Part shown: positions 23,199-42,309 of the stretch, piece after piece | Layout of the letters: every line of letters starts with the position of its first letter | Numbering within the stretch: the first letter of the stretch is position 1 | Origin: an uncultured Bacteroidaceae bacterium | Lineage (GTDB): Bacteria; Bacteroidota; Bacteroidia; Bacteroidales; GCA-2748055 | NCBI GenBank assembly: GCA_964595055.1 | Contig: CAZQOV010000003.1 | Coordinates: 1-49,213 of the forward strand | Length of the DNA: 49,213 nt | Reading direction: 5' to 3' | The notes under the pieces: model-generated | Database searches by the model: none | Told to the model about the DNA's origin: nothing | The model's input: only the letters and a program-made list of their open reading frames with translations | Program-made: the position numbers and the translations under genes

Positions 23199-24842
23199 TT
23201 AATTTTCAACATAAATGTCAGTAAAATTAAATGTATTCACATCAAATAGACCTTTATTTCCCAATTTTAATTCAGGTATTACCAGAAGCGACATGAAAGA
23301 GAGGGTCATAAAAGGGGAACTCAATTCAGATCCTGCTCTCTTTACCAGCTTATCCAATTCCAGATACTTGCCGGCAACAATTTCCGCATGTTCATCTGTC
23401 ATTATCCCTGCAACGGGTAAAGGAAGTCCAGTAATATTTTTACCATCAGAAAAAGCAATCCCTCCTTTATGAATATTAATCCAATTCAGCAGTTCCAGGA
23501 TGATTTCATCCTCTGTGCCGGTACAGATAATATTATGGCTATCGTGAGCAATTGTACTAATCATACCCCCTTTTTTGATTCCAAAGTTCTTTATGAATCC
23601 TATTGAAGGTTTCTCCTTTTTATAACGGTTTAGTACTACCAGCTTTAAAATATCTTTATCCGTATCTGATACCAGGTTTCCCCCTTTAACCTTCGGTTTG
23701 TCTATATCCATTTTAGTTATTAATTCTCCATCTAAAGCAGCGATAATTTTAAGATTTCTACCTATATCCCTGACCAAAATATCTTCTTTTTCCACCCGGT
23801 TTTCGAAAAAGATATTGGGTTTATGTGCTAATCCGGGAAGTTTAATCTTTTCCGGCACATTATTCTCAAAGACTATTGATCCCTCTATCCAGGTCTCCAG
23901 GATCTTAAAATCATCATAATTATTCACCTTTATAAAATCAGCAGGATCGCCAGGTTGAAGCAATCCCACATTGAGTCCATAAAAAGTAATGGGATTATAA
24001 GTAGCTGCCCGCAAAACATTAAACAAATCATAATTTTTCTTAAGGCTCTTTTTAATGAGAATGTTTATATGTCCATTTAACAGTTCATCAGGATGCATAT
24101 CATCCAGACAAAACATAACTTTTTCCGGATACCATTCAAGAAGTTTGTGTAAGGCGTCAAAATTTTTGGCAGCACTTCCTTCTCTAATTTGGATGAACAT
24201 GCCCGATTCAATTTTCTCGACCGCTTCATCCAGGGTAAAACATTCGTGATCCGTTTTTATCCCGGCAGCTGCATATTTTTTCAACAGTTCTCCTCTTAAC
24301 CCTGGAGCATGACCATCAACAGGCTTTCCCACCTGATGCGCATATTGAATTTTTTTCATCACCTCTTCCTCCTGATAAATAACCCCGGGATAATTCATCA
24401 TCTCCGATAAAAACCTGATTTCTTCCTTTTCCAGTAAATCCTTCACATTTTCAGAATCAATTATGGCCCCCGAAGACTCATACTTTGTAGCAGGAACACA
24501 ACTGGGTGCGCCAAAATATATTTTTAACGGGCTTCTTTTTGCATCGTTAATCATAAAATTCACACCCTCCACCCCCAGCACATTAGCAATTTCATGGGGA
24601 TCTGAAACAGTGGCCACTGTGCCGTGCCTGAACACAGACTGAGAAAATACGGAAGGAATAAGCATTGAACTTTCAATATGAACATGAGCATCGACCAATC
24701 CGGGCATGATAAAATCCAGACTTGAGTCAATGCCCTCCATGGTTTTCTTAATTGATTTTATTCTTTTACCTTCAATGATTAATTCACCTGAGAAAACATT
24801 TCGCGTAATTACATCTACTATATTCGCTTTAATTTTTTTCAT
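23199..24842 (-). CDS. ade: Adenine deaminase
   Basis: PGLVDAHVHIESSM, SDPHEIANV, EMMNYPG, DGHAP, TDHEC, REGSAAKN, AHDSHN. Confidence 0.95.
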   Translation of the reverse strand: MKKIKANIVDVITRNVFSGELIIEGKRIKSIKKTMEGIDSSLDFIMPGLVDAHVHIESSMLIPSVFSQSVFRHGTVATVSDPHEIANVLGVEGVNFMINDAKRSPLKIYFGAPSCVPATKYESSGAIIDSENVKDLLEKEEIRFLSEMMNYPGVIYQEEEVMKKIQYAHQVGKPVDGHAPGLRGELLKKYAAAGIKTDHECFTLDEAVEKIESGMFIQIREGSAAKNFDALHKLLEWYPEKVMFCLDDMHPDELLNGHINILIKKSLKKNYDLFNVLRAATYNPITFYGLNVGLLQPGDPADFIKVNNYDDFKILETWIEGSIVFENNVPEKIKLPGLAHKPNIFFENRVEKEDILVRDIGRNLKIIAALDGELITKMDIDKPKVKGGNLVSDTDKDILKLVVLNRYKKEKPSIGFIKNFGIKKGGMISTIAHDSHNIICTGTEDEIILELLNWINIHKGGIAFSDGKNITGLPLPVAGIMTDEHAEIVAGKYLELDKLVKRAGSELSSPFMTLSFMSLLVIPELKLGNKGLFDVNTFNFTDIYVEN

Positions 24843-24965
24843 AATAATAAGCTAACATGGAAAAATTTAATGGTCTTTTTAAATAAATCCCTTAAAATAT
24901 AAAATTCTTTTTCAAAATTTGAATTCATAAATTAATATTATCAAAAAACAGAAAACAAAAAGAAT

Positions 24966-24981
24966 TGTTCCACGTGGAACA
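24966..24981. promoter_or_regulatory. parS centromere site 1
   Basis: Perfect 16-bp palindrome TGTTCCACGTGGAACA matching the ParB/Spo0J parS consensus. Confidence 0.9.
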
Positions 24982-25198
24982 TTGGATTTCTGAGTGAGTT
25001 TAAAGCCAGCCGACCCCTCGCCTAAGCTTAGCGATCAGGGGAACCAAATCAAGAAAATGGATGGTAAATAAATGACCCGCCAATACCGTTCAAAATCTCT
25101 GAGCATATACGAGAGGGCCGGAGTGTCATAAGCGAATACAAAAATCAAAATGACCATACTCGTTCAGCCCATTTTGTAAATGGGGATTTTACGTCATT

Positions 25199-25214
25199 TG
25201 TTCCACGTGGAACA
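25199..25214. promoter_or_regulatory. parS centromere site 2
   Basis: TGTTCCACGTGGAACA. Confidence 0.9.
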
Positions 25215-25432
25215 TTGGATTTCGGAATGGGTTTAAAGCCAGCCGGCCCCCTCACCTACGCTTAGCAACCACGGAAACTTAATCAAGAAAATGGATAGTA
25301 AATAAATGACCCGCCAATACCGTTCAAAATCTCTGAGCATATACGAGAGGGCCGGAGTGTCATAAGCGAATACAAAAATCAAAATGACCATACTCGTTCA
25401 GCCCATTTTGTAGATATGAATTTTATGTCATT

Positions 25433-25448
25433 TGTTCCACGTGGAACA
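25433..25448. promoter_or_regulatory. parS centromere site 3
   Basis: TGTTCCACGTGGAACA. Confidence 0.9.
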
Positions 25449-25633
25449 TTAGATACCGGTTAGGGGTTTAAGACGAGCCTGCTCTTACACTACGCTCAGT
25501 GACCAGCAAAGCAACTGCTGTGAAAAAGGGTAACTCAAGGTCCTTGAGGGCAACCAAAGACCCGGTGTGAAAAAAAAACGTTTGCGGAAATTGGCAGTAG
25601 CTCCGAAAGAAAAAACCAGCAGACTTTAGCTCA

Positions 25634-41848: not shown

Positions 41849-42309
41849 TACCCTATTATATTATTATTATTATTATTTTAAACTATATATGATGATGTAT
41901 ATATTCTGTTAATTCTGTTATTATTTATCTTAAAAAAGAGTTGTATATTTTGATATTTACAGATTAACAACACAAAATTAACAGATATTCATTATGTTTT
42001 ACATTGTAAATCATTAATCTGCAAATTTATTAACAGCTTGTTAGTTAATTATTATTTTAATAAAAACCCTATAACATAAGTACTCTTAATGTGTTAAAAT
42101 ATTGTTTGTTTTTTTGAAATACAAAATGAAAAATAAATTTTGTTTTCTTTTGATTTTTTATAATTGATTCTGGTGAGGAAAAAAAAGCCTTTTTTTTAAA
42201 AAACTATTGCAAAATACTCAACATACAATTAACAAAAAATGTGCAAAAATTTCGTACTTTCAGATATGAAATTATTATATTAAATTTAAATTTTTAATTA
42301 TAGAAAGAG
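41849..42309. other. Candidate chromosomal replication origin (oriC)
   Basis: Very AT-rich 461-bp divergent gap; (ATT)6 at 41860-41877; repeated TTAACA/TGTTA 9-mers including TTATTAACA 42027-42035; gene polarity flips here; parS cluster and mnmG nearby. Confidence 0.65.

Follow-up and report, generated by a model that had tools for sequence, protein, structure and literature searches.

A predicted chromosomal parS cluster carried on a tandem repeat beside mnmG in an uncultured Bacteroidaceae bacterium

Three copies of one perfect 16-bp palindrome, TGTTCCACGTGGAACA, stand in the gap between ade and mnmG of an uncultured Bacteroidaceae bacterium; the locus raises the question of whether they are the parS sites of this chromosome, and of how a binding site came to be multiplied together with the DNA that flanks it. 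In chromosome partition, a ParB dimer recognises the parS palindrome, binds CTP and closes into a clamp, which slides onto the flanking DNA; ParA then moves the resulting complex, to which SMC is usually recruited. Origin-proximal clusters of chromosomal parS sites are present in B. subtilis and Caulobacter, and perfect-palindrome sites occur in Pseudomonas aeruginosa.

Palindromes and repeat units in the ade-mnmG gap

The window, i.e. the whole stretch of DNA that was analysed (49,213 nucleotides), is an entire contig (C3) of a 3.16-Mb MAG, which consists of 272 contigs and is 84% complete; extra parS sites could sit in unassembled DNA. In the 49-kb window the 16-mer occurs exactly three times, with start-to-start spacings of 233 and 234 bp; a fourth TGTTCCACGTGGAACA-like site is absent from the window with up to two mismatches allowed, and shuffled controls gave 0 matches (n=100). 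The gap is 791 bp long and mostly occupied by the array, and both bordering genes are on the minus strand; the next genes are uvrC at one end and, at the other end, ybeY followed by genes for an anti-sigma-type kinase and an M23 peptidase. The sites and the flanking genes are the following:

23199..24842, minus strand: adenine deaminase gene (ade), flanking the array on the downstream side with respect to transcription
24966..24981, no strand: predicted parS site 1, perfect 16-bp palindrome, exact match, 124 bp upstream of the ade start codon
25199..25214, no strand: predicted parS site 2, exact match
25433..25448, no strand: predicted parS site 3, exact match, 185 bp from the mnmG stop codon
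25634..27529, minus strand: mnmG (gidA), flanking gene; the array is downstream of its stop codon

Tandem Repeats Finder reports a period of 234 bp in 2.1 copies with 92% matches (24965-25454), while BLAST of the gap against itself carries the homology as far as 25505 (309 nt, 88%), leading to about 2.3 units at 24965-25505. Exact matches and the two programs thus confirm what an earlier note, made from the letters of this DNA, had described, namely three perfect palindromes at 233/234-bp spacing, each of them heading a repeat unit; the term “satellite-like”, which the same note applied to the array, is too strong for 2.3 units. The units are organised as follows:

24965..25197, plus strand: repeat unit 1, 233 bp, made of parS, segment X1 (24991-25063, diverged), the identical core (25064-25178) and a short end segment
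25198..25431, plus strand: repeat unit 2, 234 bp, made of parS, segment X2, the identical core (25298-25412) and an end segment
25432..25505, plus strand: unit 3, partial, made of parS and a diverged segment X3 of about 60-75 nt; homology to units 1 and 2 stops at its end
25064..25178 = 25298..25412, plus strand: identical 115-nt block (core), where unequal recombination or the loss of one unit by deletion would likely take place

Units 1 and 2 have two identical runs in common, one of 26 nt at the palindrome and the other corresponding to the 115-nt core. The X segment lies between these runs and is identical at 60 of 74 positions, i.e. 14/74 positions differ versus 0/115 in the core; the end segments (last 19 nt) differ at five positions. 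What unit 3 shares with the other two is the palindrome, with one base on its 5' side and two bases on its 3' side, followed by 60 nt of which 37-40 are identical; the unit can be aligned for about 60-75 nt past the palindrome and is unrelated beyond approximately 25505. Across the units the palindromes are invariant, and their flanks are 62-81% identical. The unit alignments therefore agree with the earlier description of an identical central block in units 1 and 2, of a third unit that is truncated and more diverged, and of unvarying palindromes. Of the informative columns in the X-segment alignment, 19 group units 1 and 2 to the exclusion of unit 3, seven group units 2 and 3 to the exclusion of unit 1, and two group units 1 and 3 to the exclusion of unit 2.

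Identity of the sites and their place on the chromosome

The three window sites are the only parS-like sites in the 3.16-Mb MAG at up to two mismatches; at three mismatches, four further sites are found in the same MAG versus three for a reversed control pattern, which corresponds to chance level. In PMC10197239, the parS consensus used is one from which TGTTCCACGTGGAACA departs at 2/16 positions. The genome has a single ParB_N match, a 290-aa ORF on contig C35 comprising the Pfam domains ParB_N, HTH_ParB and ParB_C; the window itself contains no parAB, as had been noticed before. The C35 ParB scores 189.2 bits against TIGR00180 (ParB/Spo0J), for which the cut-off is 58.45, and 258.8 against the Noc model, which is under the cut-off of 315. 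Alignment to the Noc structure 7nfu revealed that it carries a GERRFRA box, and that it reads R, Y, K and G at the specificity positions, the corresponding Noc residues being Q, K, K and R; R173 and G201 (Caulobacter numbering) are parS-type specificity residues according to Jalal et al. (PMC7383237). Directly upstream of parB, a 266-aa ORF codes for a ParA-type ATPase with the Pfam domains AAA_31 and CbiA, which matches ParA-family NCBIfam models with scores under the equivalog cut-offs, and a DUF5683 gene is located downstream of parB. Thus, the lack of parB, which had been regarded as fatal to a parS reading, is not observed: one complete ParA-ParB pair is present. Since the three sites are the sole ones in the genome, and since this pair has parS-type specificity residues, the view that the TGTTCCACGTGGAACA sites behave as chromosomal parS is supported, their binding by ParB being predicted.

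Comparison with related genomes provides a second line of evidence. One to three sites at up to one mismatch are found in 34 of 41 genomes of the family and order (own genome included), and the window sites are identical to, or at most one mismatch away from, the sites of 33 relatives. In the family alone (91 genomes, own included), 26 genomes have no site, many of them being incomplete assemblies, 37 have one, 25 have two and three have three. The other two genomes with three sites have a 25-bp pair and one distant site, with a mismatched core and on a separate contig; because these are not clustered, the window's genome is the only one of 91 with three clustered perfect sites. Pairs in the family usually abut (16 bp from start to start) or are 24-30 bp apart, with a few at 157-934 bp. 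Abutting pairs right after the mnmG stop codon were observed at loci L016, L019 and L022 (also L017 and L023), and in genomes G041, G092, G094 and G095; so close an arrangement of two ParB dimer sites recurs in the family and would merit structural study.

The position next to mnmG, as claimed earlier for gidA, is conserved at all the levels considered. The gene lies beside parS in 27 of 29 relatives' loci, mostly with the site a few bases from its stop codon, and a parS-like site occurs within 300 bp downstream, mostly at 2-40 bp, in 74 of 80 mnmG loci of wider named Bacteroidota (L039-L118), comprising Bacteroidales, Marinilabiliales-type, Prolixibacteraceae, Marinilabiliaceae and similar bacteria, whose MnmG proteins are 58-67% identical to that of the window. 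On this conservation, the slot just downstream of mnmG is taken to be the ancestral parS position in Bacteroidota. The usual arrangement of the family and order and that of the window thus have the parS sequence, the mnmG-ade slot and the ParB family in common; they differ in that the former consists of one site, or of a close pair (16 or 24-30 bp), directly past the mnmG stop, whereas the window has three sites at 233/234 bp, at 124 and 185 bp from the flanking genes, in a lineage-specific spacer. Tandem Repeats Finder, applied to 105 parS-bearing loci, found parS within a tandem unit longer than 16 bp at the window locus only.

The same data bear on the possibility that the palindromes are operators of a transcription factor acting on ade (purine salvage) or on mnmG, rather than ParB sites. 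They do lie within the 791-bp region upstream of ade and in the path of read-through from mnmG, and each of them also scores as a weak hairpin; however, the same 16-mer follows mnmG whether the next gene is ade (20 relatives' loci) or uvrC (6 loci), it recurs in the distant Bacteroidota loci and is found nowhere else in the window's genome, and it matches the parS consensus in a genome whose ParB has the corresponding specificity residues. An operator function is, as a consequence, hardly credible, and the sites are here considered as parS.

The distance of the sites from the replication origin can be estimated from the window itself. GC skew changes sign at about 42 kb, approximately 17 kb from the array, and gene strand switches at the same point, as the minus strand carries 23 of 30 long ORFs to the left, and the plus strand both of those to the right. 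The intergenic stretch located there is

41849..42309, no strand: candidate replication origin, 461 bp, 18% G+C, between the divergent genes nadA and rpiB

In another genome of the family, G013, cumulative skew, followed over 322 kb, is lowest in the syntenic nadA|rpiB gap, at a distance of 16 kb from the parS pair of that genome; this gap is 456 bp long with 23% G+C, and has conserved blocks in common with that of the window. A search for the E. coli-type DnaA-box 9-mer found 22 matches in the window at up to one mismatch, versus 17.9 expected, with no cluster, and four in the AT-rich gap at up to two mismatches, with no enrichment. Skew and synteny together suggest that the nadA|rpiB gap is likely the replication origin, at about 17 kb from the parS array. 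In the window's genome parAB and dnaA are on contigs other than that of the array; likewise, parB is on a contig other than the parS contig in 5/5 relatives checked, and dnaA in 4/4.

Spacer DNA and number of units

The 0/115 differences in the core versus 14/74 in the neighbouring X segment may suggest that selection maintains the core for a function of its own, for instance as a small RNA, as the promoter or leader of ade, or as the place where a second protein acts, the unit being then a module of two parts; in addition, both cores contain sigma-70-like hexamer pairs on the minus strand. The analyses of the spacer DNA, however, argue against it. Rfam gave no match in the whole window at the gathering score and just four in the gap at E up to 10, all with E of at least 5 and taken as chance; folding of unit 2 on either strand is not better than that of shuffled sequences (z = -1.10 and -1.48); and the promoter/terminator scan is near chance, with 5 promoter-like matches versus 3.5 expected, the “terminators” scored being the palindromes themselves (weak hairpins) and one hairpin of unit 1. 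Moreover, the core has no homologue in the relatives' gaps, and in one public run, X4 (see below), it carries a substitution, 25353 C>A. A functional core is therefore regarded as very improbable.

The hairpin of unit 1 is a local feature:

25168..25184, plus strand: perfect hairpin with a 7-bp stem, in unit 1 only, resulting from four clustered differences from unit 2 (25179, 25182, 25183 and 25185)

Its counterpart in unit 2 (25402-25418) is an imperfect inverted repeat, which the four differences make perfect in unit 1. A contig of run X1 that starts at 25162 has four differences from the window, the number expected if unit-2-like letters had been retained. The differences at 25168-25184 look like a hairpin-templated multi-base change, which may be polymorphic.

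The unit could also be, or derive from, a small mobile or REP-like element carrying parS, so that the array would reflect the activity of the element and not selection on the centromere. A genome of the same genus, G001, has in its mnmG-ade gap (L012 1-337, G001:C34) a different tandem repeat, of 179 bp in 1.9 copies with 96% matches, located at a contig end and with no parS in its units; the ends of this repeat are inverted repeats of about 27 nt, dispersed at at least 15 places in the G001 genome, which gives it a REP-like look. These ends resemble the X segments of the window, weakly (70-76% over 34-37 nt, with E between 4e-4 and 0.011 for a very small search space); a further point in favour is an internal inverted repeat of the window's unit, through which X and the core pair in the predicted fold. 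However, the similarity is short and weak, and the non-parS part of the unit is confined to a single locus of its own genome and has no copy in the parS loci of 29 relatives (L005-L033). Sensitive BLAST against the gaps of G001, G002 and G013 returned just parS and short weak matches, and the spacers between parS pairs in other lineages have nothing in common with the 234-bp unit. A mobile origin of the unit thus appears very unlikely. A dispersed REP/MITE-like repeat was considered as a candidate and rejected, as no multiple copies were found: BLAST of the whole gap against its own genome matches this locus alone, and the G001 repeat has 0 matches there.

Another genome of the same genus, G002, has a 918-bp non-coding insert between two perfect parS sites (L011 1501-2450, G002:C8), of which one follows the mnmG stop at 4 bp and the second precedes the ade start by 7 bp; this insert has nothing in common with the window's unit. 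In the genus of the window's genome, the mnmG-ade gap seems prone to repeat insertion and duplication, judging from these loci. The earlier suggestion to compare this gap among relatives, with regard to the number of units, is thus answered in part: parS next to mnmG is conserved, but the 234-bp unit has no homologue in those gaps.

A tandem repeat in a short-read MAG, with a 115-nt identical block in both units, may also be an artefact of assembly, i.e. strain variants of one parS unit could have been mis-joined, or the repeat wrongly resolved, with a true number of sites lower or higher than three. Six public runs, labelled microbial-mat metagenomes and deriving from two studies, hold the stretch, all of them as k=31 contigs. 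Run X1, with 0.95 of the sampled words, probably represents the sample from which the MAG was made, hence it is not independent support. In this run, a contig comprising ade, parS1, segment X1 and core has depth 4.9 and 0 differences from the window; a 166-nt contig, extending from the core end through parS2 and segment X2 to the core start, has depth 5.52 and 4 differences; a contig from the core end through parS3 to mnmG has depth 5.58; and the core is a single record of 128 nt with depth 8.75. The 166-nt contig requires two cores in tandem on one molecule, and the stretch from the end of unit 1 to the start of segment X2 is about 40 nt, so this junction lies within an ordinary read span. 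The depth of the middle contig equals that of the flanks and the core is deeper, therefore the depths fit two cores, contig depths being weak measures.

Other runs point to a form one unit shorter, which also counts on the side of an artefact. In run X4, belonging to the other study, one 1136-nt contig joins 25063 straight to 25298, giving parS1-X1-core-parS3; the joint skips 234 bp and falls within the 115-nt core. Runs X2 and X3, apparently the same data deposited twice, have a 297-nt record at 25255-25549 with eight differences, including 25297 A>G; this record matches the two-site form because exactly eight differences, including 25297 A>G, are expected with the tail of segment X1. Segment X2 is uncovered by contigs of the organism in runs X2, X3 and X4, at a depth of 3-4x, at which graph cleaning could clip the middle loop. 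The read-depth check suggested earlier for artefacts or collapsed copies is therefore divided, with the run X1 contigs backing the three-site form and contigs of other runs joining across one unit. Taking the tandem cores of run X1 into account, an artefact in the window is improbable in a high degree.

A real polymorphism of three versus two sites between populations is probable to a fair extent on these contigs; the earlier statement that the copy number may vary finds in them a suggestion of a two-site form, which at such low depth is not proven. Since segment X2 and the end of unit 1 have diverged from their counterparts, the two-site form is more simply derived from the three-site form, and we infer that recombination in the core led from the long to the short form, rather than the reverse. 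Searches of metagenome contigs with an exact 31-nt core word gave 0 matches, and those with the ade protein yielded two distant loci alone, with 42% identity over 56 residues, and no further gap alleles.

Proposed history and significance of the array

The locus is very probably a canonical chromosomal parS cluster, origin-proximal by skew, which lies in the ancestral slot and has been expanded by a lineage-specific local duplication; ParB binding is predicted. In this lineage, the usual one or two sites after mnmG would have become separated by non-coding DNA. An older duplication would then have generated two copies of parS with about 75 nt of flank, one corresponding to unit 3 and the other to the ancestor of units 1 and 2; later, the whole 234-bp unit would have been duplicated by unequal recombination, or by slippage between direct repeats, to form units 1 and 2. 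The pattern of the X columns (19/7/2) is the reason to consider unit 3 as older, and units 1 and 2 as the younger pair. Selection for ParB binding would keep the palindromes invariant, while the identity of the 115-nt core may reflect the recent step or gene conversion; the core would now permit gain or loss of one unit via homologous recombination.

Repeat anatomy and unit alignments are thus in line with the earlier idea that the array grew by duplication of a parS-bearing unit. The accompanying idea of selection on parS only, instead, falls short, as it leaves the identical core of units 1 and 2 unexplained; differences in the X segment and none in the core mean that a single simple duplication is insufficient, and a recent duplication or gene conversion, in at least two steps, would be needed.

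The single ParB, encoded with ParA on another contig, is predicted to load at the three sites. The extra site is probably redundant, or at most would add some robustness to ParB loading, because in Corynebacterium glutamicum one of ten parS sites suffices (PMC7083940). That the extra site is functionally neutral is inferred, as is the sequence of the two duplications.

A more dynamic picture may be drawn, in which the array represents a small centromere repeat under active evolution: the number of units would differ among near-identical natural populations (three sites in one microbial-mat run versus two in others) through recombination in the core, and local mutation, associated with DNA structure or with ParB, would act beside the loading sites, with only the 16-mer kept by selection. 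The differences between units do cluster right beside the invariant palindromes, and several of the clustered changes make local hairpins perfect, as at 25168-25184 in unit 1 and at the CTAAGCTTAG palindrome of segment X1. This picture is considered unlikely, and the preferred reading is that of a canonical cluster enlarged by local duplication.

In comparison with the chromosomal ParABS clusters known from other bacteria, such as the ten origin-proximal sites of C. glutamicum (PMC7083940), the window locus has the same 16-bp palindrome of parS-consensus type in a few clustered copies near the likely origin and gidA/mnmG. The ParB of its genome has three domains, with a CTP-binding box, and is accompanied by ParA, and the sites are presumably redundant. 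Unlike those clusters, in which independent sites are scattered over kilobases, the copies are here paralogous units of one 234-bp tandem repeat; in addition, parAB is not beside mnmG, and the sites are three in all. A closer similarity in architecture is offered by sopC of plasmid F, in which a 43-bp direct repeat occurs 12 times and each copy contains a 16-bp inverted repeat to which SopB binds (PMC3177203). Both arrays are made of head-to-tail repeats with one 16-bp inverted-repeat binding site per unit (predicted for the window). However, the window array is chromosomal, has 2.3 diverged units of 234 bp versus 12 x 43 bp, and contains the canonical chromosomal parS sequence; it is also embedded in a housekeeping context (uvrC, ade, mnmG and ybeY), with the partition operon on another contig. 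Literature searches on tandem duplication or copy-number variation of chromosomal parS, and on parS with Bacteroidetes or mnmG, found no tandemly duplicated chromosomal parS, which is not proof of absence.

Judged from its sequence, the window locus is a chromosomal parS cluster of the ordinary kind, enlarged by one copy through local duplication, and with predicted ParB binding. Its value is mainly for annotation: the centromere of an uncultured Bacteroidota lineage is located, and skew and synteny give the region where its origin probably lies; in Bacteroidota, parS keeps a fixed position right behind mnmG, with parAB in other places. The functional consequence of having three sites is probably small. 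The tandem unit is a natural example of how the number of parS sites may rise and fall by unequal recombination, possibly a route to multi-site centromeres; if the polymorphism of three versus two sites is true, it would provide a convenient natural test of parS dosage, as well as a strain marker.
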